The notes: generated by a model from the sequence alone, not told the origin. Numbered from the stretch's first letter, positions 172-15,417 are shown. The stretch: DNA of 15,417 nucleotides from an uncultured Desulfobacteraceae bacterium (GCA_964575975.1 CAZNTU010000130.1:1-15417); one strand, 5' to 3'. A program made the numbers and translations.

Positions 172-966
172 CTACTTGAACAGCTTCATATCCTCCGCGA
201 TCCGATGGTAAGGCTCGGGGAACTCCGGCTGGAAATTCTGATAGAAGGTCACGGGATAGCGCGCGCCGATTTTTTTGCCGGCGTTCTTCAACCCGTTGTA
301 CAATAAAGGAAGGTCCTTTCCAGGGAGACTTAACACCATTTCGTCGTCCTGAGTCATGGAAAAGATTCTATCTCCCATGCCCGGCATGGAAATCCTGGGT
401 TCCCCGGTCTTATGCGGAGCAAGAAGATATTCGGTGCATTCCACCTTTCCCCCGAAATTGCCGGCGATCCGCTTTCCCGTTTCAAAGACCAGGGCTTGGA
501 CCATCCTCATGATTTGAGCCGGGTTTCCGTAGATCGCCACCGTATCCGGCTCGAACGCGTTTTTCATGAGAGGAGCCATCAGAATCGACCTTTCGGGATT
601 GTTTTCGAGGCGAATCATCGAACGGATTTCATCCTGGGCGTTCTCCTCCTTTTTCGCGAACTCGACTTCGCAAAAAAGGCCTCCCATGGTTTGCCCCGGA
701 TCGGGAGCGTCAGTAAACCCAAATGCGAGCATGGCGGGCAGGCAAATCAAATCCTCCCGAGTCAGTCCCACGGTCCAGCCGTAGACGCGGGCCATGGTTA
801 CCCCCTGGCAGATGGTCACGCGCTTTTTCAACACCGCCGAGGGTCTCCGGGTTTTATCCGGAAAAGAATCGGTCTTTTCCAGAATTTTCACCCCGATCAG
901 CAGGGTTTTCAACCTCAGATCCTCTCTAACGTAATTGGCCGCTTCCCTGTAATCCGTTTTTTCCAT
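172..966 (-). CDS. DUF169/COG2043-like protein of unknown function (264 aa). Start taken at the ATG at 964-966, not at the track's longer ORF start at 1197
   Basis: Long minus-strand ORF. The in-frame ATG at 966 has an AGGGAG Shine-Dalgarno about 7 nt upstream. The extension to 1197 would run through AT-rich, repeat-dense intergenic DNA. The family call comes from memory of sequence character only; no search was possible. Confidence 0.6.
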   Translation of the reverse strand: MEKTDYREAANYVREDLRLKTLLIGVKILEKTDSFPDKTRRPSAVLKKRVTICQGVTMARVYGWTVGLTREDLICLPAMLAFGFTDAPDPGQTMGGLFCEVEFAKKEENAQDEIRSMIRLENNPERSILMAPLMKNAFEPDTVAIYGNPAQIMRMVQALVFETGKRIAGNFGGKVECTEYLLAPHKTGEPRISMPGMGDRIFSMTQDDEMVLSLPGKDLPLLYNGLKNAGKKIGARYPVTFYQNFQPEFPEPYHRIAEDMKLFK

Positions 967-1000
967 GTCATGCTCCCTTGTCGGTTTGGATGAGTTTTTT

Positions 1001-1042
1001 AGCATGCTCTTTTCGGATTTTCGGACTTTCCCGAAAAATCCG
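1001..1042. promoter_or_regulatory. Cluster of dyad and direct repeats in the 5' region of the DUF169 gene: AGCATGCT palindrome (1001-1008), tandem TTTTCGGA x2 (1010-1025) and an inverted copy CCGAAAAATCCG (1031-1042)
   Basis: Read directly from the sequence. Sits 35-75 nt upstream of the minus-strand ATG at 966. Could be an operator, or a 5' UTR hairpin on the minus transcript (CGGATTTTTCGG ... CCGAAAATCCG). Confidence 0.3.
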
Positions 1043-1103
1043 TAGTTTTGTTCGAAGACGGGAGACACTTTTTGCGTTTCATAAATGCCCGTTTTCCTAG
1101 CCT

Positions 1104-1134
1104 TTGATTCCCAAAGTGAAGGTCTTGATTCCCA
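1104..1134. repeat. Direct repeat TTGATTCCCA x2 (1104-1113 and 1125-1134), 21 bp centre to centre
   Basis: Exact 10-mer seen twice. Two helical turns apart, in the divergent DUF169/PHP intergenic region. Confidence 0.5.
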
Positions 1135-1291
1135 CAATATTGTTCGTACTATTAATTTTCGTGCAATTTTCCACCTTATCCGTTGCGATCTTTTCAAGAT
1201 CCGATCGTAAAAACATGTTTCGATTCGCAGCTATTGCTGGGGAACCGAAACGAACAAAACTTAAATTCACGAAGCACGGGAGTCAAGAACT

Positions 1292-1951
1292 TTGATTATC
1301 GACATGCACAATCACACGAACATATCGTCCATATGCAGCGTTCTTCGTCCGGAAGAACTGATCGAGACGGCGAGGTCTCGGGGTTTGGATGGAATCTGTG
1401 TAACGGAGCACAATACCCTCCAGGGGGCCAATGTCGCAGCCGACCTCGGACGCAGGATGAAGTTCCCGGTTTTCAGAGGGCTGGAGGTCTCTACGGATGT
1501 TGGAGACATGCTGGTTTTCGGATACTACAAGGATATTCCCCAGGGGACGCCTTTGCCGGAATTGTGCAAAATCGTCCACGCTGAAGGAGGGGTTTTATTC
1601 GCAGCCCATCCCTTCTATCTGCGGGGAGGATGGAACCTTTATTCCGGGATGAAAAAAAAGATGCGCATCGATTTGGAAACCGGCTGGTGGAAGGCTGAAA
1701 TTCTCGGGCAATTGGACGGCATCGAAATCAGGAACGGCAATGTCGATCACGACAACAACCGGAAAGCCGAGGAATTGGCCGAAAGACTGCACATACCGGG
1801 CATAGGCGGAAGCGACGCCCACTCGGTGGACATGATCGCGAAAGCCGCGACGAAGTTCTCCAAGGACATTCATGACGAGGCGCAACTTGTCGCCGCGTTG
1901 AAATCCGGGGAATTCGAGGCTATGTATCTTCGCCGCGACACGATGCACTAG
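1292..1951 (+). CDS. PHP-domain metal-dependent phosphoesterase (219 aa)
   Basis: N-terminal DMHNHT motif, then VTEHN, AAHPF and GGSDAHS histidine/aspartate motifs typical of the PHP fold. TTG start at 1292 has GGGAG (1278-1282) 9 nt upstream. An alternative ATG lies at 1304. TAG stop at 1949-1951. Confidence 0.85.
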   Translation: MIIDMHNHTNISSICSVLRPEELIETARSRGLDGICVTEHNTLQGANVAADLGRRMKFPVFRGLEVSTDVGDMLVFGYYKDIPQGTPLPELCKIVHAEGGVLFAAHPFYLRGGWNLYSGMKKKMRIDLETGWWKAEILGQLDGIEIRNGNVDHDNNRKAEELAERLHIPGIGGSDAHSVDMIAKAATKFSKDIHDEAQLVAALKSGEFEAMYLRRDTMH

Positions 1952-2437: not shown

Positions 2438-3415
2438 ATGCAGAGATTGAATTTTTCGGATATTTTCCAAAGCAGAGACACTCACAAAAAAGTCATCAAG
2501 TTTGGTTTGGCGCTGTTTTTGGCGATGGAATTGTTCATTTACATCGGAGCTGCCAATCACACGGGAAAAGAGTCATGGGTGAACATTTACGATTCACAGG
2601 GCGAAAAAATCTACGAGACGCCCGGTACCGGTTTGACCAAATACGAAATCCACATTTTCGAAAGGTCGTTCGGTTCGCTGGAACAATATCGGATCCGAAC
2701 CGAAACCCGGAACAAGGAGTTTCCATTCAGGGCTTGGCTGGCCATTGCGGTGGGCGCTCCGATCGGACTTGCCCTTTTGATAATGTATTTGCTGCGCGCA
2801 TATTTGACATTTCTGGGAGACGATAAGACTCGGGACGGCGACTGGAACCCGACCGAAACAAACGGCCCCTCCCATCGAGCCGCCGCCAGATGGTTCGGTT
2901 GGAGCCGAATATCCATTTTTCACCTGGGGGGGTTTTTGATCGTATGCGTCCTGGCCGTATGGCTGGTCCCCGACTACATCGCCGACGCCGCCGGGGGATT
3001 GCTGGAGACGATCCTCCGATTCAAATGGTTCTTTCTAAGCATTTGCGCCTTCTTGGCTTCGCTGGTCGTATGGGTCATTTACTTGCGCTACCGAATGTCA
3101 CAGAGAATGATGGATCGCCAAATGGATCTGGAAAAGTTCCGAATGGAAAAACAGATGATGGTGGAAATGCAGAAGCTTCAGACAAGGGCATTGCCCCAGA
3201 CTACTGCGAGGGAATACGGCGAGCCGTTTAACAGCTCTGCAAACGACCTGTCTCAAAAAATAACGGACGGAATCCTTCCTGGAACCGTCGATGACAACAA
3301 TTCTACCGTTCGGGAAAATTCGGAAGAGAAAATGGAAACTGCCGAGGCGGAGGGTTTTGCGGACAATCCGGACAGAAACGGAATATGGCATTTCTTGAAA
3401 AGGAAATCGGGCTGA
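2438..3415 (+). CDS. Hypothetical integral membrane protein (325 aa). Four predicted TM helices, a roughly 60-aa extracytoplasmic loop, then a Met-rich coiled-coil segment and an acidic tail
   Basis: ATG at 2438 with AAGGA upstream. Hydrophobic stretches around residues 20-38, 100-120, 150-172 and 190-212. Segment RMSQRMMDRQMDLEKFRMEKQMMVEMQ holds 9 Met in 27 residues. Confidence 0.8.
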   Translation: MQRLNFSDIFQSRDTHKKVIKFGLALFLAMELFIYIGAANHTGKESWVNIYDSQGEKIYETPGTGLTKYEIHIFERSFGSLEQYRIRTETRNKEFPFRAWLAIAVGAPIGLALLIMYLLRAYLTFLGDDKTRDGDWNPTETNGPSHRAAARWFGWSRISIFHLGGFLIVCVLAVWLVPDYIADAAGGLLETILRFKWFFLSICAFLASLVVWVIYLRYRMSQRMMDRQMDLEKFRMEKQMMVEMQKLQTRALPQTTAREYGEPFNSSANDLSQKITDGILPGTVDDNNSTVRENSEEKMETAEAEGFADNPDRNGIWHFLKRKSG

Positions 3416-3469: not shown

Positions 3470-3499
3470 CCCGTGAACCTAAACGGGTACGTTCACGGG
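3470..3499. terminator. Hairpin CCCGTGAAC-(12 nt loop)-GTTCACGGG between the convergent membrane-protein and MFS genes. No U-tract
   Basis: 9-bp perfect stem seen in sequence. It overlaps the MFS stop codon at 3493-3495. The absent T-run makes intrinsic-terminator function uncertain. Confidence 0.3.
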
Positions 3500-4655
3500 C
3501 AAAGCCGCCTCCATTTCTTCATTCCCCATACGAAAAATACCGCAGCCAAAACTCCGGAGACCGCCGAGACGACTGCCACGCCGGAAATTCCGAAAGCGGT
3601 CCACAAGGGCCCCCCGAACAGCGCTCCGGCCACTCTTCCCATTCCCGACGCCGCCAGGAAGCCGGACATCATGGTGGCTCTGCTTTGGGGAAGCAATTCG
3701 GTGCAGAGCGAGAGACTCGAAACAATTGTAAATTCGTATGTCAGAAAAATCAGGAAAATTACCGTCAGCGCGAAAGGCAAGTACGCGTCGCAGAACGGCA
3801 ATGGCAAATAGCAGCATGTGGACAAGACGGTTCCTGCCAAGACGGCTCGCTTCAGCCCGATCCTGTCCGATACGAAAGCGGTCAGAAACTCTCCGGACAA
3901 CTCTGCGGCGCCTATGACCGCAGCTCCGAAGCCCAGCGCGATCAGGCTCATGTCGAAGGTCTTTTCGAACCATGCTCCATAAATCACGAAAAGATTGTCG
4001 TTGGCAGCGCTGACAAAAAACGAGAATCCAAGCATACCTACGGAGGATTTTTTCCGGAACAATCCTTTCAACAATGCATGGCCCCCCCCCCCGACCGAGG
4101 AACTTTCTCCCGCGCCTTGTCTCCTCTGCACAACAACGTAAAAAGCAGAATGCCGACGAAGCCGAGCATGGCAATCGCAAAAAAAGGGGAACGCCATCCC
4201 CAGTTTTCCATCATTATTCCCACCAGGGGAATTCCCATCAACGCACTCCCGGCCCAACTTACCTCCAGAAGCCCGATTACCAAGCCACGACGTTCGAATG
4301 GGACTCTTCGTCCCACGTAAGCCTGCAAGGACGGGTCGAATACGTTTTTTCCAATCCCTGCGAGAGTAAGGCCCGCGAAGACGAAAGCGTAGACAGGAAA
4401 AAAGGCGGCGGCGATCATTCCGGTCGAGAGCAGGCAGAGTCCGGTCAGCATCATGACCCGGTAGCCCATGCGGTCGGCGACGGGGCCGAAAAAAATGGCG
4501 AAAACGCCGGTCGCTTGGTTTGCAGCGAGAATCGGTGTGACAGCGGTCAAGGGAACGTTCATTCCCCGACTCAGTTCGGGCGCGAACGGATAGGGAAAGC
4601 GCCTTGCGGTGTTCAACAGGAAACGGCATGAAACGACCAAGGCAAGTTTCAACAC
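3493..4655 (-). pseudogene. MFS-family transporter with its reading frame broken at a G11 (plus-strand C11) homopolymer at 4082-4092. The N-terminal half (frame of ORF 4068..4655) and C-terminal half (frame of ORF 3493..4659) are both intact
   Basis: The N-half carries MFS motif A (GPVADRMGYRVMM) after the first helix. The C-half is multi-TM. The two frames abut exactly at the homopolymer. One extra G (G12) would give ...KVPRSGGGGHALLKGLFRKK... continuously. GTG/TTG start at 4655/4652 with a weak RBS. Only 5 clear TMs in the N-half, so the N-terminus may also be degraded. Confidence 0.75.
4082..4092. repeat. C11 (minus-strand G11) homopolymer tract at the MFS frameshift site
   Basis: Counted directly: g at 4081, then 11 c at 4082-4092. 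Confidence 0.9.
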
Positions 4656-4677
4656 CCACAGGGACTTGGCGTTCGAA

Positions 4678-5934
4678 TCAGGAATCTTTCACCCTTTCGA
4701 TTTTGGCGTTCAAAGCGGCGAATTTCTTCTCGATGGATTCGTATCCCCGGTCTAGATGGTACACCCTATTGACGGTGGTTTCTCCTTTGGCGGCAAGTCC
4801 CGCCAGAATCAAGCTGGCGCTTGCCCTCAAGTCCGTCGCCATGACGGGTGCGCCGGTCAGCCTATCGACGCCCTTGACCATGGCCGTATTCCCGGAAATC
4901 TCGATGTCCGCGCCCATCCTTTGCAGTTCGCACACATGGATGAATCGGTTTTCGAAAATGTTTTCCGAAATGACGCTGGTGCCGTCGGCAAGGGTCATGA
5001 GCACCATGAACTGCGCTTGCATGTCCGTGGGATAGCCAGGATAAGGGAGCGTCTTCACGTTGGCGCTGGCGATTCTGTCCGCGCCTTGCACTCTAAGGCT
5101 CTTCCCGTTGACATCAATCAAAGCGCCGGTTTGTCTTAATTTGTTTATTACGGCCCCGAGATGGTCCGGTTCGCAACTTTCGATAAGCACGTCTCCCTTG
5201 GTCAGTGCTCCGGCGACCAGAAAGGTGCCGGTTTCGATTCTGTCCGGAATGATTTCAATTTCGGCGGGATGCAGCGATTCAACGCCCTTGATGGTTATCA
5301 CGGATGTTCCTGCGCCTTGGACGTTTGCACCCATTTTATTCAAGGCAACGCCCAATGCGGCGATCTCCGGCTCTCGCGCCACGTTTCGAAGCACCGTTTC
5401 CCCTTGTGCCAGCACGGCGGCCATCATCAGGTTCTCCGTACCGCCGACGGTTGGAACATCCAGATAGATGTCCGCTCCTTTCAGTTTTTCTGCGGAGGCC
5501 ACAACGTAACCGTGCTCGATCTCTATGGAGGCGCCCATTCGAGCGAGTCCCTTGAGATGCAGATTGATCGGACGCGCCCCGATGGCGCATCCTCCCGGAA
5601 GAGACACTCTTGCCTTTCCCAGTTGCGCCACGAGAGGTCCTAGAACCAGTATGGATGCCCTCATCTTTCTGACGAGGTCGTAAGGGGCAACAGAATTGTT
5701 CAGGCCGCCGGCGTCTATGGAAATCTCCGATTCGCTCGTTTCGACCTTGGCCCCCAAATGCGACAGCAAATCCTTGACGCTGTCGATGTCTTTCAGATTG
5801 GGAACGTTGGAATACGTGTTTTTCCCGTCCGTAAGAAGGGCCGACACCAGAATAGGAAGCGCCGCGTTTTTCGATCCGCTGATTTTCACCTCGCCCTTAA
5901 GAGGATGGCCGCCTTCGATGACAATTTTATCCAA
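4678..5934 (-). CDS. murA: UDP-N-acetylglucosamine 1-carboxyvinyltransferase MurA (418 aa), TTG start
   Basis: Collinear similarity to E. coli MurA from MDKIVIEGG... through ...[10 protein letters not shown]. Includes the active-site Cys in [11 protein letters not shown], so this is the fosfomycin-target type. The start codon at 5932-5934 is TTG, by alignment with the MDK N-terminus. Confidence 0.95.
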
Positions 5935-5949
5935 TCGATTATTTCCCTA

Positions 5950-5990
5950 AAAGCCAAAAAGCGCTCCCCCGCCGGGAGAGCGCTTTTCGT
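5950..5990 (-). terminator. Intrinsic terminator for the minus-strand respiratory operon: 11-bp stem (AGCGCUCUCCC/GGGGGAGCGCU with one G-U pair), GGCG loop, then UUUUUGGCUUUU
   Basis: Read from sequence. Lies immediately downstream of the small ORF stop at 6017 and about 25 nt upstream of the murA TTG start. An A-run on the other side makes it weakly bidirectional. Confidence 0.8.
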
Positions 5991-6016
5991 TTTAAAAGCT
6001 ATTTATGCAGTCCGGA

Positions 6017-6196
6017 TCAGTGATGCCCTTCGTGGCCGCCATGGCCGTGGCTTCCCTGGCCTTTCACGGTATCGTATACGGTTTTCAGAACGACGAACGT
6101 CATTCCCGCGCCCAATATCGACAGAGCGTACCATAAACCGCCGTGAAAGACGAAGTGGCTCATATCCCAAATCCATTCAAAGGAAAACGGAAACAT
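6017..6196 (-). CDS. Unannotated small membrane protein (59 aa): MFPFSFEWIWDMSHFVFHGGLWYALSILGAGMTFVVLKTVYDTVKGQGSHGHGGHEGHH. Single TM helix plus a His-rich C-terminal tail
   Basis: Below the size cutoff of the ORF track. ATG at 6194-6196 (minus) has AAGGAGGG 7 nt upstream and lies only 18 nt after the qrcD stop. Stop TGA at 6017-6019. The terminator follows directly. Translated by hand from the sequence. Confidence 0.55.
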   Translation of the reverse strand: MFPFSFEWIWDMSHFVFHGGLWYALSILGAGMTFVVLKTVYDTVKGQGSHGHGGHEGHH

Positions 6197-6214
6197 ATTC
6201 TATCCCTCCTTCAA

Positions 6215-7540
6215 TCAGGCTGTTTTGGCTATAGCGGTCGGAGCAAAATCTCCGGCCGGCTCTTGCTCTGCTTCCTCCGCCTTTTCGGTCGCGGCGCCAG
6301 GCAAAGGATTCAATTCCTTTTCCTGGGGGAATACGGGCAGGTAGCGGTAGGACAGGGAAATCAGGATTATGCCGTAGGCTACCGGCAGAATGGTGGTCGC
6401 GATCTCCTGCCAGCTGGGGAAGTAGGTGAACCAGCTTTCGAACGGCATGACGGGAACGGCCAGCACTTGCAGGACCATGACCCAACGATTGACGCTAACG
6501 CCGACGCAAGCCAAAGTGACCGCGATCCAGAGGGCGACCTTGTTCTGCCTTCCGGCCTTGGTCACCAGGATCAGCGCGGGAACCACGCCGCCGAGCACCA
6601 CTTCGAGGAACAGAATCCAATAACCGTACGCCGAACCGGGATTGTTGGTGTAGAAGTCGGCCAGTGTGAATCCCATGGCGGGAGCCGTGTTGATCGCCCA
6701 GTAGACGGTATCGACGATCTTCGCCACGATGTAGGTCAAAAGCATCCAACCGGCGATCTTGGCCAACAGCTCAATCACGTTGTCCTTTACCAGCTTTTTG
6801 CCCGTGGCGACTTCCGTGATCTTCGTCACCAAGATTGTGAAGCACGGACCGCAGGCGGCGGCTGACCAAGTGAAGAGAAAGAAAGTCCAAGGCCAGATCA
6901 GAACGCCTTCGCGAAATCCGAAGGGCCGTCCGAAAAGCACGCCGGCGACGCCGCCCAGGGAGCCTTGATGGAAAAAGGACAGGAAGGCGCCGGTTGCGGC
7001 GAAGACGGCCATGAACTCGTGCATGTTGTGGCTTAAATTGTGGAAAAACGGGACTTTGTCGATCTGGCGGTTTTCCAGGACGAGAGGAATGTACTCTATG
7101 GTCAGAACCGCGAAGTAGCAGGACAGACAGAACGCCACTTCGGTAAGCATGGAGTGTACGTTCGCATGCCAGAAGATAAACCATCCTCTGAGCGGCTGAC
7201 CGATGTCGATCGCCAGAATCAGCAAGGCGGAACTGTAGCATATAAAGCCGATCAGAACCGCGTAGTTGATGATGTTCTTAAGTTCCTTCAGGTTGAAGAT
7301 GTAGCGTAAAAGCCCTGAGAAGAACGCGCCGCCGCCCAACGCGATCACCGCGAGGTCGGCCCAAATCCACAGGGCGAATCCGTACGCGTCGTTCATGTTG
7401 GTCTGGTTCAATCCTTTTACCCAACAAAGGATCATGGCGTAAACGCCAATGGCCAGAACCACGCCGACAGCGCCGATCCACAAGACAAACTTTCCGAGTG
7501 AACAGCGTTGGACACCCTCGGGAATTAATTCGGAATCCAT
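6215..7540 (-). CDS. qrcD: NrfD/PsrC-family polytopic membrane subunit (441 aa), QrcD-like quinone-interacting subunit
   Basis: About 10 hydrophobic helices. Size fits QrcD/ActC rather than the 8-TM PsrC. AGGAG RBS upstream of the ATG at 7540. Last gene of the cytochrome / Mo-family / Fe-S / NrfD module. Confidence 0.85.
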   Translation of the reverse strand: MDSELIPEGVQRCSLGKFVLWIGAVGVVLAIGVYAMILCWVKGLNQTNMNDAYGFALWIWADLAVIALGGGAFFSGLLRYIFNLKELKNIINYAVLIGFICYSSALLILAIDIGQPLRGWFIFWHANVHSMLTEVAFCLSCYFAVLTIEYIPLVLENRQIDKVPFFHNLSHNMHEFMAVFAATGAFLSFFHQGSLGGVAGVLFGRPFGFREGVLIWPWTFFLFTWSAAACGPCFTILVTKITEVATGKKLVKDNVIELLAKIAGWMLLTYIVAKIVDTVYWAINTAPAMGFTLADFYTNNPGSAYGYWILFLEVVLGGVVPALILVTKAGRQNKVALWIAVTLACVGVSVNRWVMVLQVLAVPVMPFESWFTYFPSWQEIATTILPVAYGIILISLSYRYLPVFPQEKELNPLPGAATEKAEEAEQEPAGDFAPTAIAKTA

Positions 7541-7612
7541 AAGGTATGCGCTCCTAAATGTTTAAACGGTTTCTATCACCACTGTTATTGCCTGAATATT
7601 GCAAAACCCCGA

Positions 7613-8428
7613 TCACTTATGGCCTCCGGCGGTTTTGGCGGCCTTGGCCACTTCCTTGGTTTCGCTTTCCAAGTAGTTGTCGCCCGACCTGCGGACCCAT
7701 TCCCTGGAGGAGACGTAATAAACTTTCGGATTGGTGTGAAGTCTTTCCAGGAGCCTGAACGCGTTGGGATTTTGTTTGAGTTCGTAAACCGCGTGCTTTG
7801 GATTGTCCAAGTCTCCGAACGTGATCGCGTCGACAGGACAGGCCTGGGCGCATGCGGTCTGATATTCATGCTCTTCCAGTTCCTTTCTTCCCTCGTAGAT
7901 GGCCTTGTCCATGGCCAACTGGTAGCGGTGGAAACAGAAACTGCATTTTTCGACGATACCGCGCATACGAACGGAAACGTTGGGGCTGAGATATTTTTCC
8001 ATTCCCTTGGGCCAGACCGGGTCCCACCAGTTGAAGTACCGGACATGGTAAGGACAGGCGGCCATGCAGTATCGGCACCCGAAACATCTCGTGTAAATCT
8101 GGCTGACAATGCCGGTTTCCATGCTGTAGTCGGTGGCGGTCGCGGGGCAGACCGAAACGCAGGGCGAATGCCCGTGCTCCCCGACGCCCGAACAATGCTG
8201 GCACGGTCTCGGAAGGTAGCAAATGTCCGTGTCCGGATAAGATTTGCCGTTGGTCAGCTTGTAAACCCGGAGCCACGTGATGCTCCGAATCTTATCCGTT
8301 TCGTCTTTCTTGAAAGGCACGTTGTTCTCCTGCATGCAAGCCACCATGCAGGCGCCGCACCCGGTGCATTTGTCCAGGTCGATGACCATACCGTATTTTT
8401 TGGCGTGTGTATTGTGTCCTTTTTCCAT
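7613..8428 (-). CDS. qrcC: Four-cluster [4Fe-4S] ferredoxin-type subunit (271 aa), QrcC/PsrB-like. No signal peptide
   Basis: Four Cys motifs: CTGCGACMVAC, CQHC-x10-C-x3-CP, CFGCRYCMAACP and CSFC...CAQACP. No N-terminal signal, consistent with Tat hitchhiking on the large subunit. Confidence 0.9.
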   Translation of the reverse strand: MEKGHNTHAKKYGMVIDLDKCTGCGACMVACMQENNVPFKKDETDKIRSITWLRVYKLTNGKSYPDTDICYLPRPCQHCSGVGEHGHSPCVSVCPATATDYSMETGIVSQIYTRCFGCRYCMAACPYHVRYFNWWDPVWPKGMEKYLSPNVSVRMRGIVEKCSFCFHRYQLAMDKAIYEGRKELEEHEYQTACAQACPVDAITFGDLDNPKHAVYELKQNPNAFRLLERLHTNPKVYYVSSREWVRRSGDNYLESETKEVAKAAKTAGGHK

Positions 8429-8452
8429 CAGAACCTCATATAGATTTTCAAT

Positions 8453-8520
8453 CTTTCAGCTGTCGGCCTTCAGCTTGCTCCGAATCGCGCGACGCGAAAA
8501 ACCAGGCCGTAAGCTGAAAG
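8453..8520. repeat. Imperfect 16-nt inverted repeat CTTTCAGCTGTCGGCC (8453-8468) / GGCCGTAAGCTGAAAG (8505-8520), 14 of 16 complementary, with 36-nt spacer. A nested TCGCG-CGA-CGCGA mini-hairpin sits at 8485-8497
   Basis: Seen in the 112-nt qrcB-qrcC intergenic region. Would form a long-range stem-loop in the polycistronic mRNA. Confidence 0.5.
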
Positions 8521-8540
8521 CTAAAATTATTTTGAAAAGC

Positions 8541-10775
8541 TTAGGCTTTGGTCAATTTCGCCCGGATTCCCCATGCCGCGTTCAATCCCGTGAGCGGATC
8601 CTCGACAACCTTAAGCAACTGGTTGGCGTTGAGGCCCTTGCCCCGTCCCATGTACTCGTCAAAGGCGGTGTGGCCCAATCCGGTGGGAATCGCGATCACG
8701 CCCGGCAGGATACCGTCGAACAAGGTCACCTTCACTTTCGCCGTGCCGGCCGCCGTTTGCAATTCGGCGTAGTCGCCTTCTTCCAAACCGGCTTTCTCCG
8801 CCGTCTTCGGATTCATCTCCACCACCACGTCATTATGGAACAAGACTTCGTTGGGGACTGTCTTGAGCATGAAAGGCGTCGTAGCCGCGTACCCTTTCGA
8901 GCGTCTCATGGAATCGTATGGAATAAGCGTGTAGTTTCCGGCTTCCATTTCGATCCCAAGGCTCTCGAAGTGCGGCAACCCTCTATTGTTCTCCTGGGGG
9001 TTCTTCACCGCAGTCGCCAAAAACTCGAACTTTTTCGAACTCGTCTCGAAGTTCCAAGGGTTGGGGACGACTTCGTCGCTTACCGCGACGACATCCTTCA
9101 GCAACGCGTCCCATTTGTCGCCGAGGGTTTCCTTCAAACAGGTCTCATAGTCGCACCAAGGGAACGCCTCGGATACCGAGCCGCCGAGTTTCTTCGCGAT
9201 CCCCAAAATGGCGTCGCCGGTATGCATGGTGTTCAGCTGAGGCTTGACCACCGGTTTGGCAAGCGCGAGAACCGGTTTTTTCAAACCCGCCGCGATCGGA
9301 ACGTCTTCGTAGCGCTCCAGGTAGACATGGTTGGGAAGGATCAGATCGGAAAACGCGGCCGTTTCGTCCATGAAGGAGGAGAAGCTTGCGACGAAGGGGA
9401 TTTGGGAGAAGGCTTTTTTAACGGCGTCCGTGTCGTTCATGGTGTAGAGAGGATTGGCGTTGGCGATCAGAAGCGCCTTGACGTCGTACTTTTCGCCGGC
9501 GTTGAGGATTTTGGGGAAGCGTTCCAGAAGGCTCTCTGCGCACAGCCACTCGTCGGACCCGGCGCCGTCAATCCGTCCTTTTTGAAGTCCTGCGGAAGCG
9601 ATCTCGTCGGCTCGAACCTCCGGCCATGCGATATAATCGAATTTCGGAAGGGACCATACGCCGCCTTCGGAATTGATGTTTCCGACGAGCGCGTTCAACG
9701 CCTGAACTGCCATGACTTCGTGAACGGAACCGGGAATGTCGCCCTTTCCTCTTCCGCATACGGCCAACGGTTTCTTGGCCTCGGCGAACTCGAGGGCCAA
9801 TTCCACGATGGTTTCCTCGCCGATCCCGGTGATCTCCGCGACCTCGCCCGGGCTGTAGTCGTTGGTCACGAGGTTCTTGAACTCCTTGAAACCGCTCGAT
9901 CCCGTATCGACAAAGTTCTTGAGGTACTTTTTCTGACGTACGATCACATGGGCGATGCCCATGGCCAAAGCGGCCTCCGTGCCGGGATTGATCGGAATCC
10001 ATTTGTCCATCTTTGCCGCAGTGGTAGAAAGGCGCGGTTCGATCTGGATCACCTTGCCCCTTTCGCGAATCCCGTTGATCGCCTGGAACATGCGGATGGG
10101 AGAACCCCATCCCTCGATCAACCCGCTGCCGAAACTCAAGAGGTAGTCGGTGTTTTCAAAGTCGAACCCGACCGGTCCCTCCGAGCCTTGCATCAGTTTG
10201 GCGGCGGTCCGGTACGTATCGAAGACGGTGGCGGGGGTCATGAAGTTCGAAGAGCCGTAAGCCGTCGTGAATCTTTTCAAGAGAGCGCCCACGGTGCCTT
10301 TGTCGTCCCCCGAAATCGCGGCCACCTTTTCCGGCTCGCCGGCGGCCCTGATCTCGGCCAGCTTCTCCGAAACGATGTCGATCGCCTCGTCCCAGGAAAT
10401 TTTCTGCCACTTGCCCTCGCCCCTTTCGCCGATTCTCTTCATGGGGGAAGGAACCCTGAAGGGACCGTAAAGATATTGAAGGCCGGAGGCGCCGAGGATG
10501 CAAATGCCGCCGTCGTTGACAGGGCTTCCTTCGGTCCCCTCGATCTTGATCGCCCTGTTGTCCACTTTCCGGACGGAAATGCCGCAACCGCCGGGGCAGA
10601 GCGTGCATACGGTATTTTCGTACGCGTATTGTCCATCGGGGGGAACCGGCGTCCATGGCCACATTTGAGTCCAAATTGACAAATCGTCCGTCAGTTTCCA
10701 GGGCAGCGGCGTAAGGTTAATCCCCGCAGCGGCCCCGACGGCGAGTGATAAGAAACATCTTCTGCTAAGTTTCAT
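8541..10775 (-). CDS. qrcB: Molybdopterin-oxidoreductase-family large subunit (744 aa precursor) with twin-arginine signal, QrcB-like. Start moved to the ATG at 10773-10775
   Basis: MKLSRRCFLSLAVGAAAG... gives a Tat motif SRRCFL. GAGGT SD lies 7 nt upstream of this ATG, and the track start at 10838 has no SD. N-terminal CTLCPGGC...C four-Cys cluster motif. Length and domain order match molybdopterin-family enzymes. Confidence 0.9.
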   Translation of the reverse strand: MKLSRRCFLSLAVGAAAGINLTPLPWKLTDDLSIWTQMWPWTPVPPDGQYAYENTVCTLCPGGCGISVRKVDNRAIKIEGTEGSPVNDGGICILGASGLQYLYGPFRVPSPMKRIGERGEGKWQKISWDEAIDIVSEKLAEIRAAGEPEKVAAISGDDKGTVGALLKRFTTAYGSSNFMTPATVFDTYRTAAKLMQGSEGPVGFDFENTDYLLSFGSGLIEGWGSPIRMFQAINGIRERGKVIQIEPRLSTTAAKMDKWIPINPGTEAALAMGIAHVIVRQKKYLKNFVDTGSSGFKEFKNLVTNDYSPGEVAEITGIGEETIVELALEFAEAKKPLAVCGRGKGDIPGSVHEVMAVQALNALVGNINSEGGVWSLPKFDYIAWPEVRADEIASAGLQKGRIDGAGSDEWLCAESLLERFPKILNAGEKYDVKALLIANANPLYTMNDTDAVKKAFSQIPFVASFSSFMDETAAFSDLILPNHVYLERYEDVPIAAGLKKPVLALAKPVVKPQLNTMHTGDAILGIAKKLGGSVSEAFPWCDYETCLKETLGDKWDALLKDVVAVSDEVVPNPWNFETSSKKFEFLATAVKNPQENNRGLPHFESLGIEMEAGNYTLIPYDSMRRSKGYAATTPFMLKTVPNEVLFHNDVVVEMNPKTAEKAGLEEGDYAELQTAAGTAKVKVTLFDGILPGVIAIPTGLGHTAFDEYMGRGKGLNANQLLKVVEDPLTGLNAAWGIRAKLTKA

Positions 10776-10859
10776 GGATTTTACCTCGTTATGTGAAAAT
10801 GCGAGCAATATTATTCTTGTTTTTTTTCGAGTCCGCAACAGAATGATATTTCATAGCTC

Positions 10860-11549
10860 TTACTTGTGGCAAACGAAGCAGGCGCCTTTTTCCGTCTGGA
10901 CGCTGCTTTGATTGACGTTGTTCTCCTGGTGGCATTCCGAGCAATCGTCCATCTTCATCCGGTCCCACGTGTTTTTCTTGAGCCCGGCGATGTTTTTGCC
11001 CCAAATGTTCCGGCTGTAGCCGGAAATTCTATTGTATTCGTAGATCGGCAAAGTTGTGGACCCCCCGATGTCGCCGTGGCAGGTCCGGCAATTCATTTCG
11101 CCGGATATCACGTGGGCCGCGTGCGAGAAGAACACGCAATCGGGTTGCCTGGAATAAACGAGCCATGGAACCTCCAGGCCGTTCGCGACATATTGCTCCA
11201 CGAAAATGGCTTCGTCCTCGCTCCCCCCTTGCACCTCGTAGTGGCAGTCCACGCACTGGGCAAGCTTGGGAGCGCCGGAAAACGTACCGTCTTCACGGAA
11301 GAAATGGCAGCTCTGGCAACCGTTGTCCACCATCTCGTTGTGAAGCTGGTGGTTAAAATCGAACGGCTGCTTCTTCTGCGAATAGAGGACTTTGGGAAAC
11401 CCAATCCATCCTACCAAAAGGCTCGCAACCAATCCGACAACGAAGAAAATGAAGACGATCCCAATGGTGTTTTTCTTCCCGGAAGCCTCGGCGCTTTCAT
11501 CGGCCGCTTCCGCTGAAGCCTCTTTGGCCTTTTCCTCTGATGTGCTCAT
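10860..11549 (-). CDS. qrcA: Membrane-anchored pentaheme cytochrome c (229 aa), QrcA/ActA-like
   Basis: Five CxxCH motifs (CQSCH, CVDCH, CRTCH, CSECH, CFVCH). N-terminal acidic tail, then one TM helix IGIVFIFFVVGLVASLLVGWIGF. GGAG SD 6 nt upstream of the ATG at 11549. Confidence 0.88.
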   Translation of the reverse strand: MSTSEEKAKEASAEAADESAEASGKKNTIGIVFIFFVVGLVASLLVGWIGFPKVLYSQKKQPFDFNHQLHNEMVDNGCQSCHFFREDGTFSGAPKLAQCVDCHYEVQGGSEDEAIFVEQYVANGLEVPWLVYSRQPDCVFFSHAAHVISGEMNCRTCHGDIGGSTTLPIYEYNRISGYSRNIWGKNIAGLKKNTWDRMKMDDCSECHQENNVNQSSVQTEKGACFVCHK

Positions 11550-11575
11550 GGAATCTCCGTCAAAAAGTGGTTTAA

Positions 11576-11616
11576 ATTTTCACAAAAGAACCCAAACAGA
11601 CCTTGAAAAAATTCAA
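11576..11616 (-). promoter_or_regulatory. Candidate class II CRP/FNR-family-dependent promoter for qrcA. TTGAA-N4-TTCAA dyad (11603-11616) is centred about 40.5 bp upstream of a predicted TSS. Extended -10 TGTGAAAAT (minus strand, 11584-11576)
   Basis: Dyad core TTGA-N6-TCAA matches 8 of 10 positions of the FNR box. The TG-n-GAAAAT spacing is exact for an extended -10. Predicted 5' UTR is about 20 nt. All positions hand-derived; no experimental support. Confidence 0.4.
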
Positions 11617-11796
11617 CGCCGGTTCCGTCGCCTTTTTCGAAATCGTATGGCCTGTACAATGAAAAAGCGCCGAATCGGGCGTTTCCGAACTTGAAAAGAA
11701 ACTATTTCCATAGGGTCGGGCGCCCGCCCCGAACAAACGGGACTGAAAATAATTTGAGTCTGTTTATCTATAGTTATCTGTTTTGTCAAGAAAAAA

Positions 11797-12639
11797 TCAT
11801 TGACCCATGCTGCCGTAACTGTGCAAGCCCGGCAAAAGATTCACGCCGAAATACGTGAAAAGGACCGCGGCGAAACCCGCCACCGACAGCCATGCGATTC
11901 TCTTCCCTCGCCACCCGCGCATCATCCTGGCATGGATCAGCGTCGAATAGATAAACCACGTGATCAGAGACCATGTTTCCTTCGGGTCCCATCCCCAATA
12001 GCGGCCCCACGCGCTGTTGGCCCAGACCGCCCCCGTTATGATGCCCGCCGTGAGAAACAAAAACCCGAACATCACGAGCTGGTAAATCAACTCGTCCAAA
12101 ATCGACGAGTCCGGAAGCCGACCGAGGAGACTGCTTTCGCTCCGGGCGCGTTTCTTCAGGATGTACATGACGGCGATTCCGAAGGCGACCGCGAAAGCCG
12201 CGTAGCCGACAAAGCACGTGATCACGTGGGCGATCAGCCAGTTGCTTTTCAAAGCCGGGACCAACGGCTGTATACGGTCGCTGATGTTCGGGGAAAGGCT
12301 CGCGTAGGCCAGGGCCAGGAAAGCCAAAGGCGCGGTGAACGCACCGATGACCCGGTTCTTGTACTTCATTTCGAGAACCAGGTAGACCGCTATGATGGTC
12401 ATCGAAAAAAAGACCAGGGATTCGTAAAGGTTGGACAAAGGCGCGTGACCGAAACCCATTTGGTAGGATTCGATCCATCGCAGCGCGATTCCGGCCAGGT
12501 TTCCGAAAAGTCCGGCCAAGGCGACCCATGTGGCCGCCTTGGCCGGACTTTCTTTCTTGAAAACCCACGAAAAAACATACAGAAACGCCGACAATCCATA
12601 AACGAACGTAGTGACGGACAATATGCTGGAACTGTTCAT
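11797..12639 (-). CDS. ccsA: Cytochrome c biogenesis protein CcsA/ResC (system II heme-handling protein, 280 aa)
   Basis: Polytopic membrane protein with the tryptophan-rich WWD motif WGRYWGWDPKETW and conserved flanking His residues. GAGAGG SD upstream of the ATG at 12639. Confidence 0.9.
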   Translation of the reverse strand: MNSSSILSVTTFVYGLSAFLYVFSWVFKKESPAKAATWVALAGLFGNLAGIALRWIESYQMGFGHAPLSNLYESLVFFSMTIIAVYLVLEMKYKNRVIGAFTAPLAFLALAYASLSPNISDRIQPLVPALKSNWLIAHVITCFVGYAAFAVAFGIAVMYILKKRARSESSLLGRLPDSSILDELIYQLVMFGFLFLTAGIITGAVWANSAWGRYWGWDPKETWSLITWFIYSTLIHARMMRGWRGKRIAWLSVAGFAAVLFTYFGVNLLPGLHSYGSMGQ

Positions 12640-12682
12640 TCAAACCTCTCGATTCAATAATATAAAAGGTGCGGGGGCGGGA

Positions 12683-14059
12683 TTATTCCATCGCCCGCAA
12701 TTGCTCCAAAATACTTTTCACCTTTTGCGCCATCCCGAGTTTGTTCTTGTTCGAAGAACCGGCGACCGTCACGCGGCATCCGTTGCCGGTCCGGACAGCC
12801 TCCACGAACAGGCGCTGGTGGGATATGAAAAAAGTGACGAAACATCCGGCGATCATCACGACAAAGCCGAGATATACAAGGGGGACGCCAGGATCGTACG
12901 TGACCTGAAGACCCGTATAGAATTTCTCGTCGTATTTTTCCACCGCGATCACGAACTCGCCTTTTCGCATGCGGTCGAAATTGGGAAAGCGAAGAGGCAA
13001 TACGATCTCGACCGGCTCCTTGTCCTTGAGGTTCAATGTTCCGATGAACGCCTGGCCGATAGAATGTCCCCGGAACTGCGCGTTGTCGCTGAAGCTTTGC
13101 AGCACGAATGTACCCTTGCCGTCAGGAAGATCGATCGTTTGGCCGACCTTCGCCTTTTTCATGATATTGAACCCGAACTCCTCTTCCCTAGTGGCGATGC
13201 TCAAGGTGACCGTGTCCGAGGGGACGGACCCGTAGCTAGACTGGAAAATATTGATGCCCTCGTATCTCAGAGGATCGTTAACGATGATGTCCTTTTTCAG
13301 AACTTCCTTGCCGTTCTCCAGTATCGTCAGCGAGCTTCGGTATTCCTTGGGGGTGCCGGACTCGTAGAAGCTGACGTCGAAATCGTCGCACCGAATCGCG
13401 AAATCGAGGGCTTGAATCGCGGGTTTGTTTCGCAGGCGGATGCTGTCGACGGTCTCGCCCTCGGGGATGTTGACGAATCCCTCGAATCCCATGATGGAGC
13501 CGATCAGACCGCCCAGCAGCAAAAAAATTATGCTCAGATGGACGATATAAGCCCCCAACCGGGTCCAACGTCCCTTTTCAGCTAAAAAGACCCACCCATT
13601 GTCGGTCTCTTCGACGCGGCAATAACCGAATTTCCTGCGAAGGAAAGGTTCGTACAGTTTGCGCAAGTCCTGGGCCGACCGGTCTCTTTCAAACTCCTCC
13701 TTGTCGGAATCGCCTCTGAAGCGTCCCGGATTGAAGGAGGGCTCTTTCACGAAAACCACCTTCCAAGCGGTCGGAAGCCTGTCCAGGGAACACACGACCA
13801 CGTTGGCCGTCAAGACGATCAGGACAAGCTGAAACCACCACGAATGGTACATGTCGAACAGATCCAGGAACGAAAACAGCGCGTAGAGCTTCGGGCCGTA
13901 GGCTTGCATATAGGCTGCGGGGCTTTCGTTCTGGGGGATGACGGTACCTATTATGGAAGTGGCCGCCAAGGTCAACAATACCGCGACCGTAAGCTTTACG
14001 GACGCGAAAAACCTCCACACCCCGCCAAGGGGGGTCGGAGAGGTATCGCTTCGTTCCAT
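12683..14059 (-). CDS. ccsB: Cytochrome c biogenesis protein CcsB/ResB (458 aa). Start taken at ATG 14057-14059 (MERSDTS...), not the track ATG at 14098
   Basis: N-terminal TM helix after WRFFASVKLTVAVLL, a large soluble middle domain, and a C-terminal TM pair (VYLGFVVMIAGCFVTFFISH), which is the typical ResB architecture. AAAGGA SD 8 nt upstream of the 14059 ATG. Nothing SD-like before 14098. Confidence 0.85.
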   Translation of the reverse strand: MERSDTSPTPLGGVWRFFASVKLTVAVLLTLAATSIIGTVIPQNESPAAYMQAYGPKLYALFSFLDLFDMYHSWWFQLVLIVLTANVVVCSLDRLPTAWKVVFVKEPSFNPGRFRGDSDKEEFERDRSAQDLRKLYEPFLRRKFGYCRVEETDNGWVFLAEKGRWTRLGAYIVHLSIIFLLLGGLIGSIMGFEGFVNIPEGETVDSIRLRNKPAIQALDFAIRCDDFDVSFYESGTPKEYRSSLTILENGKEVLKKDIIVNDPLRYEGINIFQSSYGSVPSDTVTLSIATREEEFGFNIMKKAKVGQTIDLPDGKGTFVLQSFSDNAQFRGHSIGQAFIGTLNLKDKEPVEIVLPLRFPNFDRMRKGEFVIAVEKYDEKFYTGLQVTYDPGVPLVYLGFVVMIAGCFVTFFISHQRLFVEAVRTGNGCRVTVAGSSNKNKLGMAQKVKSILEQLRAME

Positions 14060-14599
14060 CAATAATTCCTTTCCGATTCTATCCGGACTCGATCCCATAA
14101 TCGACGTCTCGTCAAAATGCCGTTTCGTGCAATCCGCGCGGGCGCGCCGGTTCGCGGCTCTCCTTCAAATCGACGAACGAGCATAATATTCATCCTCCCG
14201 GGACTTTTCCAGGTCTAACGCGAATTTTAGTGTCGGGTTTTCCCGTAGCCGCATTGGCTGGAAAATCGTTGCGGAAACATGTTTCATACTTTTCGGCTCG
14301 AGGCACCTACCCGACTCGATCATTGTTGGCGGCGCCCCGATGCAATAGGAGGTTATAACAAAACGGCAATATGGAAGCAACACAAAGAAAAAAACTGGAT
14401 TTGTTTAAAAATCGGCGGATTCGGAACTTGCAGGCAAGTACCGTGCTGTGGAAACGCGATTCTTGACAATTCCGGTTTCCGTATAAGGTTTTGATGTAAC
14501 GAGGCCGATCGAAAATGAAAACAACGATATGAAAGCGCGCGCCGAATTGGAAAAATGGACGGGCGGCAACCTTTTTATTCATGCCGCATTAAGCGAGGC

Positions 14600-15007: not shown

Positions 15008-15417
15008 TTATCTTTTTATGCTCATTTTAACGAATACCGAGTCGTCGAGGATGCGGAACGTAAACGATTCGGTCAGGTAAAGCGAGACGGTGTCCTTGTC
15101 GTGCTGGGCGTAGCCGATCATATAATCCTGCCCCAAAATCAGCTCCAAATCTCCGCCGCGCATGGAAACCAGAAAGGCGTCCCGAATTTCCGAAGCGTAC
15201 AAGATCGGACCCCCTAAAAGATTTTCGATATGCCGTCGCAAAGGATAACCGTTCAAATGCCTTGAGAGAGTTCGCCATTCCGCCGGATTTACCACAAGCG
15301 CGTACGGTCCCTCTACCGAGGCTTCCAGCAGGGTGGTTATCCCTGTCGAAACGGCCTCCAGGATCTCGGGAATTTGGTCGGAAAACTCCAGAAAGTGCCG
15401 GGACGCTTCGTACATCC
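15008..15417 (-). CDS. Family-1 encapsulin (linocin M18-type) nanocompartment shell protein. Only the C-terminal ~135 residues are in the window; the 5' end lies beyond the window edge
   Basis: The C-terminus ...VEGPYALVVNPAEW...GYPL...LVSMRGGDLELILGQDYMIGYAQHDKDTVSLYLTESFTFRILDDSVFV aligns residue-for-residue in character with the T. maritima encapsulin C-terminus (GPYTLVINTDRW...GHYPL...[50 protein letters not shown]). The M at 15415 is internal. Confidence 0.88.
   Translation of the reverse strand, partial: MYEASRHFLEFSDQIPEILEAVSTGITTLLEASVEGPYALVVNPAEWRTLSRHLNGYPLRRHIENLLGGPILYASEIRDAFLVSMRGGDLELILGQDYMIGYAQHDKDTVSLYLTESFTFRILDDSVFVKMSIKR

Follow-up and report, generated by a model that had tools for sequence, protein, structure and literature searches.

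A Desulfobacterales-type qrcABCD operon with a pentaheme QrcA and a conserved N-terminal cysteine motif in QrcB from an uncultured Desulfobacteraceae bacterium

Four adjacent genes on a contig of an uncultured Desulfobacteraceae bacterium (GCA_964575975.1, CAZNTU010000130.1:1-15417; the whole analyzed stretch of 15,417 nucleotides is called the window here) raise the question of whether they encode an ordinary quinone reductase complex of the Qrc type, a form lying between Qrc and alternative complex III (ACIII), or a molybdenum (Mo)-dependent reductase linked to a cytochrome. The original prediction, which was made from the sequence by eye, had recognized a Qrc-type module at 6215-11549 but had seen in it a hybrid of Qrc and ACIII. 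We found that this region of the minus strand carries a qrcABCD operon of the Desulfobacterales type, as is seen in the gene identities, motifs, residue conservation, synteny and clade membership. It is very probably an ordinary operon of this kind, encoding the periplasm-facing cytochrome c:menaquinone oxidoreductase of sulfate reducers. The apparent Qrc-ACIII hybrid features are the norm of the family, and it is the well-studied complex of Desulfovibrio vulgaris that is the unusual one. The four genes are intact and closely spaced, with intergenic gaps of 84, 112 and 72 nt from qrcA to qrcD. They are as follows, with the scores against their NCBIfam equivalog models:

10860-11549, minus strand: qrcA, membrane-anchored pentaheme cytochrome c, 229 aa (NF041781, 259.5 bits; cut-off 180)
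8541-10775, minus strand: qrcB, molybdopterin-oxidoreductase-like subunit exported by twin-arginine translocation (Tat), 744 aa (NF041783, 554.8 bits; cut-off 440)
7613-8428, minus strand: qrcC, periplasmic iron-sulfur (Fe-S) subunit with four clusters, 271 aa (NF041782, 449.3 bits; cut-off 400)
6215-7540, minus strand: qrcD, NrfD-family integral membrane subunit that binds quinone, 441 aa (NF041784, 692.9 bits; cut-off 570)

All four proteins passed the cut-offs of their own models, and the family E-values, from 1e-77 to 1e-208, are far beyond chance. Together with the four open reading frames (ORFs) in order, these scores bear out the qrcABCD arrangement that had been proposed. The equivalog scores and the clade that the window QrcB shares with the QrcB of D. 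vulgaris also place the locus with canonical QrcABCD, that is, as an ordinary Qrc. The reference used for comparison was the QrcABCD of Nitratidesulfovibrio (Desulfovibrio) vulgaris Hildenborough (DVU0695-0692; locus L081; QrcB P0271 = AAS95175), which was reached through a search of representative sequences followed by a cluster and contig look-up. The pairwise identities between the window proteins and those of D. vulgaris are 46% for QrcA, 36% for QrcB, 61% for QrcC and 56% for QrcD. The two complexes share the gene order, the four subunit types and the equivalog models that all four subunits pass.

For a wider comparison, a pattern scan for QrcB over one genome per GTDB species matched 474 genomes, and the loci studied were the best 80 of these 474. 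They are all from Desulfobacterales, as metagenome-assembled genomes or isolates, and their QrcB proteins are 53-73% identical to that of the window, the closest at the species level (L003) being 73% identical. As far as the contigs extend, the gene order qrcA-B-C-D is constant in these best 80 loci, 5 of which are cut off before qrcA, and the same order is found in D. vulgaris and in the loci L083-L089. The direct counterpart of the window operon is the Qrc of cultivated Desulfobacteraceae, such as Desulfococcus multivorans, Desulfosarcina variabilis, Desulfobacula toluolica and others, which is known from genomics and proteomics; apart from its origin in an uncultured lineage, the window operon does not differ from it. 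The exact protein sequences of the window QrcA-D are present in NCBI/ENA, and close relatives there are named QrcB or QrcC.

The Fe-S subunit and the membrane subunit correspond to those of D. vulgaris residue by residue where function has been tested. The window QrcC has four groups of cysteines, and all 16 cluster cysteines are common with the D. vulgaris QrcC. These groups, and a further residue of interest, lie at the following positions:

8336-8368, 8147-8203, 8054-8086 and 7838-7945, minus strand: the four cysteine groups of QrcC
8069-8071, minus strand: Tyr120 of QrcC, equivalent to Y113 of D. vulgaris

The window QrcD matches PF03916 (E = 2.3e-10) and the QrcD model from end to end (positions 1-408 of 408), and its residues D62, Y102, D112, S130, Y142, R352 and E407 are equivalent to D70, Y110, D120, S138, Y150, R358 and E413 of D. 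vulgaris. The 16 cysteines and the PF03916 match confirm the four-cluster Fe-S subunit and the NrfD-family membrane subunit of the original prediction. In D. vulgaris, eight residues of QrcC and QrcD with roles in quinone binding and proton uptake have been mutagenized, and seven of them are essential (PMC13059093). In our alignment, all eight are kept in the window proteins. Both subunits also carry short, charged, low-complexity C-terminal extensions that reach beyond the family models and the D. vulgaris proteins, at 7613-7669 in QrcC and at 6215-6304 in QrcD, where the tail runs about 30 aa past the model.

The cytochrome subunit was the first source of the suspected hybrid character. The window QrcA has a single hydrophobic segment at aa 29-51 (Kyte-Doolittle 2.85; nt 11397-11465) and exactly five CxxCH motifs, at aa 78, 99, 154, 203 and 224, which agrees with the proposed pentaheme cytochrome anchored by a transmembrane (TM) helix. 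The motifs are encoded at the following positions:

11304-11318, 11241-11255, 11076-11090, 10929-10943 and 10866-10880, minus strand: the five CxxCH heme-binding motifs of QrcA

Five of the six heme motifs of the D. vulgaris QrcA are positionally kept in the window protein. The sixth heme of D. vulgaris comes from a short insertion, CNQCHQFSERELCNLCH, directly after the third heme motif (QrcA at 5353-5985 of L081), which contributes one extra CxxCH; the window has CRTCH at this place. The insertion is absent from all of the other 81 complete QrcA sequences that were examined. Exactly five CxxCH motifs are present in the QrcA of 74 of 75 Desulfobacterales loci from the best 80, the single exception being cut by a contig end. 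We also fetched the contigs of seven representatives chosen for diversity from the QrcB clade at large, two of them from the Desulfovibrio-like branch. All seven have an operon of cytochrome, QrcB, Fe-S and NrfD-type genes in which the cytochrome has five CxxCH motifs. Five hemes are hence the general state of QrcA, and the hexaheme protein of D. vulgaris, the only one with six, is the exception and not the canonical form for which it had been taken. Five hemes are probably also the ancestral state, common to QrcA and ActA of ACIII. Ahead of the TM helix, the window QrcA has an acidic N-terminal tail of 28 aa (11466-11549), and the tblastn matches to QrcA in related loci often start past the first ~39 residues.

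The resemblance to ACIII is real but is not particular to the window. ACIII (ActABCDEF; structures 6F0K, 6BTM, 6LOD and 8K9E) likewise has a TM-anchored pentaheme cytochrome, ActA, that resembles QrcA, together with a MopB-like domain that lacks the Mo ligand, an Fe-S module of four clusters and a quinone subunit of the NrfD type (PMC5928083). It might thus be supposed that the window complex stands between Qrc and ACIII in evolution or in function, working like ACIII as a quinol:cytochrome c oxidoreductase. The five-heme QrcA with its N-terminal TM helix fits such a supposition, and so do the closest relatives of known structure, which are the ActA chains for QrcA (phmmer, E = 3.9e-15 to 2.1e-9 over aa 29-163) and the Fe-S domain of ActB for QrcC (E = 1.8e-55). 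It has further been reported that Qrc is related to ACIII and runs in reverse during syntrophy (PMC6303296). However, these likenesses extend over the whole Qrc family. The D. vulgaris QrcA matches ActA with an E-value of 1.1e-18 for the best chain, and its QrcB matches ActB at 6.9e-21, compared with 2.9e-8 for the window QrcB. Because the D. vulgaris proteins match ActA and ActB more strongly, the window complex is less ACIII-like, not more. Against the solved chains of ArrA and PsrA, the order is the opposite, with 1.4e-59 and 1.5e-55 for the window QrcB and 3.1e-28 and 3.6e-27 for the D. vulgaris QrcB, so that the window QrcB is, if anything, less degenerate than that of D. vulgaris and more similar to the Psr/Arr enzymes. 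The ActA-like features of the window QrcA are due to the shared ancestry of the whole Qrc family.

The hallmarks of ACIII are also missing from the locus. In ACIII, the MopB-like and Fe-S parts are fused in ActB, whereas in the window qrcB ends in a stop codon and is followed, after the 112-nt gap, by qrcC as a gene of its own. ACIII has two NrfD-like subunits, ActC and ActF, as well as ActD and the monoheme ActE, and it oxidizes quinol; a second NrfD-like gene, actD, actE and actF were not found at the locus, which is flanked by ccsB and resB on one side and by murA on the other. QrcD passes its own equivalog cut-off, and a phmmer search with it matched none of the solved chains, not even ActC, at E <= 0.01. 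In addition, the B1 domain of ActB has no prosthetic group (PMC5928083), in contrast to the intact N-terminal cluster motif of the window QrcB described below. We therefore regard an intermediate between Qrc and ACIII as extremely unlikely. The equivalog scores, the pentaheme norm, the weaker ActA and ActB matches and the missing hallmarks speak against the placement between the two complexes that had been proposed.

The large subunit is the part of the complex in which the window and D. vulgaris differ most. The open frame of qrcB extends over 8541-10838, and its start was set at the ATG at 10775, giving 744 aa, because all homologues start there (MKxxRRxFLS, with M1, K2, R5 and R6 invariant). 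The protein has a twin-arginine motif, SRRCFLS, at aa 4-10 (nt 10746-10766), a complete motif for the N-terminal cluster FS0, C57-x2-C60-x3-C64-x27-C92 (nt 10500-10607), and the three Pfam domains of molybdopterin oxidoreductases, PF04879, PF00384 and PF01568. The original description as a large subunit of the Mo family with a Tat signal and a full CxxCxxxC...C motif is consequently correct. Two further positions bear on the question of whether it is a molybdoenzyme:

10494-10496, minus strand: Leu94 of QrcB, at the position of the FS0-to-pterin relay
10218-10220, minus strand: Asp186 of QrcB, in the Mo-ligand column

In the phmmer alignments with PsrA and ArrA, the window QrcB has no Cys, Sec or Ser at the Mo-ligand position, which in the catalytic enzymes is in the loop that follows the first Rossmann-like strand. 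Asp186 takes the place of the PsrA ligand Cys173, and opposite the ligand Cys of ArrA there is a gap of one residue beside Asp186. The protein stays below the cut-offs of the other families, with 324.3 of 694 bits for PhsA, 218.2 of 1600 for ArrA and 138.9 of 1750 for TtrA. To place it in a tree, 1.84 billion representatives at 50% identity were searched and 143 full-length sequences were aligned; the neighbor-joining tree was calculated without bootstrap and rooted on four Cys-bearing sequences that score best as ArrA or PhsA. The window and D. vulgaris QrcB fall into one clade of 41 of the 143 sequences with no Cys-liganded member, and the Cys-bearing relatives P0188, P0254, P0263 and P0216 lie outside it. 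The clade has a signature at the second residue after the fourth FS0 cysteine, which is hydrophobic in 36 of the 41 members and Lys or Arg in 73 of the 102 sequences outside. The same position is occupied by Lys44 in FdhH and, in PsrA and ArrA, by the arginine of the CPR motif, and it is through this residue that electrons are relayed between FS0 and the pterin. Among the 81 Desulfobacterales QrcB, it is Leu, Met or Ile in 80, and the equivalent of PsrA Arg332 varies between Q, K, R, E and D.

Asp186 is conserved in 80 of these 81 sequences, and an Asp is found in the ligand column also in members of the clade without the FS0 cysteines (P0128, P0137, P0147, P0150 and P0182). Because a pterin would be electrically isolated in these proteins, Asp186 is probably structural and not a Mo ligand. 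The absence of a Cys ligand, the loss of the relay Lys/Arg, the variable equivalent of Arg332 and the Asp in members without FS0 together suggest that the window QrcB most likely contains no Mo- or tungsten (W)-bis-pterin cofactor. This is in agreement with the reports on the D. vulgaris QrcB, which contains no Mo (PMC6303296) and is described as cofactor-less (PMC6303296, PMC13059093); both proteins lack a Cys, Sec or Ser ligand and the Lys/Arg between FS0 and the pterin. Two general measures do not discriminate the Mo status: the scores for PF00384 and PF01568, which are 121.6 and 52 bits for the window, 94.5 and 54.6 for D. vulgaris, and 108-127 and 66-75 for Cys-liganded relatives, and the count of columns at least 85% conserved in the relatives outside the clade with Lys/Arg at position 94 (n = 69), of which the window keeps 59 and D. 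vulgaris 52, most of the 69 columns being structural Gly, Pro or Trp. The QrcB clade excludes about 100 of the 143 representatives (from the set P0121-P0270); these are 750-830 aa long, have all four FS0 cysteines and in most cases a Lys/Arg at the relay position. Many of these relatives have no Cys at the aligned Mo-ligand column, and some score 300-355 bits against the QrcB model, which is short of its cut-off.

These data also bear on the proposal that the operon encodes a cytochrome-linked reductase of a sulfur compound or of arsenate, which we consider highly unlikely. Such an enzyme would account for the intact FS0 motif, for the presence of all three Pfam domains, with scores like those of Cys-liganded relatives, for ArrA and PsrA being the best solved relatives, and for the conserved Asp at the ligand column. 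PsrABC (2VPZ) and ArrAB (6CZ7) resemble the window proteins in having an FS0 motif, a Tat signal, a partner subunit with four clusters and the same order of domains. However, they have a catalytic Cys and the CPR Arg where the window has Asp or a gap and Leu, and the equivalent of PsrA Arg332 is not conserved in QrcB; the window moreover adds a cytochrome subunit and has a membrane subunit of the QrcD and not the PsrC type. The ligand residues Cys, Sec and Ser are missing, QrcB passes its own cut-off while the PhsA, ArrA and TtrA scores remain far under theirs, and Asp186 persists in clade members without FS0, in which an isolated pterin could not exchange electrons. The partners are likewise QrcA, QrcC and QrcD equivalogs with the quinone-site and proton-path residues of Qrc. 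Clustering with the catalytic Psr, Ttr or Phs enzymes and a conserved Mo ligand had been named as the outcome that would identify such a reductase; what we found is a clade shared with the Mo-less D. vulgaris QrcB (PMC6303296) and an Asp at the ligand column. The choice between a QrcB-like protein and a Mo-bis-pyranopterin guanine dinucleotide enzyme, which the original prediction left undecided, is thus tilted by the missing Cys ligand and the lost relay against the latter, and sequence gives no proof.

The FS0 cysteines are the one real difference between the window QrcB and that of D. vulgaris, and they are conserved across the clade. They are kept in 79-81 of the 81 Desulfobacterales QrcB, and the full set of four is kept in 28 of the 41 clade representatives, so that the state of D. 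vulgaris is a minority. The four positions are C, C, C and C in the window, with a PF04879 match, and S, C, I and S in D. vulgaris, without such a match. The window QrcB is also 53 aa longer and has Asp in the ligand column where D. vulgaris has Gln. Because the cysteines are so conserved, it is rather likely that the Desulfobacterales QrcB binds a fifth Fe-S cluster, the [4Fe-4S] cluster FS0. The simplest reading is that FS0 would be an off-pathway, stabilizing cluster. A precedent is cluster N7 in NuoG of complex I, an off-pathway stabilizing [4Fe-4S] cluster in a Mo-less domain derived from MopB. NuoG/Nqo3 is a detectable relative of the window QrcB (TIGR01973, E = 9.5e-15), and N7 is the equivalent of FS0; it belongs to another complex on the cytoplasmic side, however, and the analogy is functional only. 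Our literature searches on QrcB with 4Fe-4S and on Qrc with pentaheme or FS0, the scope of which excludes Venceslau 2010 (JBC) and Pereira 2011, returned nothing specific. PMC11887813 and its supplementary text call the Desulfobacteraceae Qrc distinct: QrcA is ~20 residues longer than that of D. vulgaris, and QrcB branches separately and has a 4Fe-4S domain at its N-terminus.

A more far-reaching proposal is that QrcB is redox active, FS0 serving as a second point of electron entry or exit, possibly along with an Asp-ligated pterin, for donors other than the cytochrome TpIc3 in Desulfobacteraceae without hydrogenases. The frequencies just given for the FS0 cysteines, which are lost in the D. 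vulgaris group, and for D186 would be expected on this proposal, as would the fact that QrcA and QrcB have diverged most from Desulfovibrio (46 and 36% identity, compared with 61 and 56% for QrcC and QrcD). In PMC11887813, a donor other than TpIc3 has been suggested to interact with QrcAB, on the ground that periplasmic hydrogenases are missing from several members. A structural, off-pathway cluster like N7 explains the conservation of the cysteines equally well, though, and the relay Lys/Arg is lost, the substrate-site residues are not conserved in the 81 Desulfobacterales QrcB, and there is no partner gene in the operon of the window or of the related loci. We therefore consider a QrcB with FS0 as a second electron gate unlikely. 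The stronger form, in which the QrcB of most Qrc-bearing lineages, that of the window included, would have a second electron entry or a catalytic site with a redox-active FS0 and conceivably a Mo- or W-bis-pterin liganded by Asp186, likewise has only a small chance of being right; if true, it could explain the abundance of Qrc in Desulfobacteraceae that lack periplasmic hydrogenases.

The reading that we prefer, an ordinary Qrc, also agrees with the surroundings of the operon. The genes on its two flanks are as follows:

11797-12639, minus strand: ccsB (ccsA-type), system II cytochrome c biogenesis (TIGR03144, 281.8 bits, cut-off 187.6; PF01578 match)
12683-14098, minus strand: resB/ccs1, system II cytochrome c biogenesis (PF05140 ResB, E = 3.6e-109)
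4678-5934: murA, downstream of qrcD

The gene ccsB lies upstream of qrcA on the same strand after a gap of 247 nt, and resB lies 43 nt upstream of ccsB. Among the best 80 loci, most of the contigs that are long enough have ResB-CcsB upstream and MurA downstream, in dozens of Desulfobacterales species. A colocalization of qrcABCD with ccsAB has been described in Desulfococcus multivorans (PMC5109826). In contrast, the qrc operon of D. vulgaris has other neighbors, namely sugar-nucleotide genes and a PilZ gene, and no adjoining resB-ccsB. Scans of 5900-14400 for promoters (6 matches, compared with 4.2 +/- 2.5 expected) and terminators (17, compared with 12.8 +/- 3.8) remained at the chance level, and the Rfam and tRNA scans of the whole window gave no matches. 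Genes for TpIc3, a periplasmic hydrogenase or formate dehydrogenase, or menaquinone biosynthesis were not found on the 15.4-kb contig.

From orthology with the D. vulgaris complex, we infer the activity, direction, donor and cofactor content as follows. Electrons from a reduced periplasmic cytochrome c, which is TpIc3 in Desulfovibrio and may be another c3-type cytochrome in Desulfobacteraceae, would enter the five-heme wire of the membrane-anchored QrcA, and the four Fe-S clusters of QrcC would conduct them onward to menaquinone, whose binding site is on the periplasmic side of QrcD. The two protons of the quinol would come from the cytoplasm through QrcD, which would make the reaction electrogenic without proton pumping, as described for the D. 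vulgaris Qrc with an H+/e- of 1 (PMC6303296). QrcB would leave the cytoplasm by the Tat route and probably take along QrcC, which lacks a signal peptide. It would serve mainly as a scaffold without catalytic function that goes back to a molybdoenzyme of the Psr/Arr type; in the lineage of the window, it would most likely bind FS0 and not a Mo/W-bis-pterin. The adjacent resB-ccsB may supply heme attachment.

Several points weigh against this scheme. The activity, donor and direction of the Desulfobacterales Qrc would follow from orthology, and QrcB is just 36% identical to the characterized protein, its ArrA and PsrA matches being far stronger than those of the D. vulgaris QrcB. The Pfam molybdopterin-domain score of 121.6 bits equals those of the Cys-liganded relatives. 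In Nar-type enzymes an Asp can ligate Mo, and on sequence the conserved Asp186 may leave room for a pterin cofactor. The QrcB tree is of the neighbor-joining type and was built without bootstrap. Furthermore, several Desulfobacteraceae are described as having no periplasmic hydrogenases (PMC11887813 and PMC5109826), and the Desulfovibrio donor scheme may not apply because of this. According to the same papers, Qrc is constitutive and abundant in Desulfobacteraceae, and QrcA and QrcB are distinct there.

The window operon is an ordinary member of a known and already annotated system, and for genome annotation there is no consequence: it is the standard qrcABCD of an uncultured Desulfobacterales bacterium. 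What the comparison brings out is that D. vulgaris, the sole source of a Qrc studied biochemically, has a complex that is atypical twice, in its sixth heme and in its lost FS0 cysteines. A hexaheme QrcA and a QrcB free of cofactors should therefore not be assumed for Desulfobacterales, the dominant sulfate reducers of marine environments. A redox-active FS0 in Desulfobacterales, if confirmed, would call for a small revision of the models of electron flow.

Further genes lie elsewhere in the window. A gene for a major facilitator superfamily transporter at 3493-4659 (minus strand) is split over two frames, with the N-terminal half in an ORF at 4068-4655 (PF07690, E = 2.9e-27) and the C-terminal half within 3493-4140 (PF07690, E = 3.6e-12), which points to a frameshift near 4070-4140, through either a pseudogene or an assembly error. 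Three unrelated neighbors lie at 172-1197 (minus strand), 1292-1951 (plus strand) and 2438-3415 (plus strand); among them are a DUF169 protein (PF02596, E = 1e-48), a PHP-domain metallohydrolase (NF038032, 83 bits) and a predicted membrane protein of 325 aa with no Pfam or NCBIfam match. At the other end of the window, 15008-15415 (minus strand) belongs to a gene for an encapsulin shell protein (PF04454 Linocin_M18, E = 2.7e-32), of which the contig end leaves just the C-terminal 135 aa.

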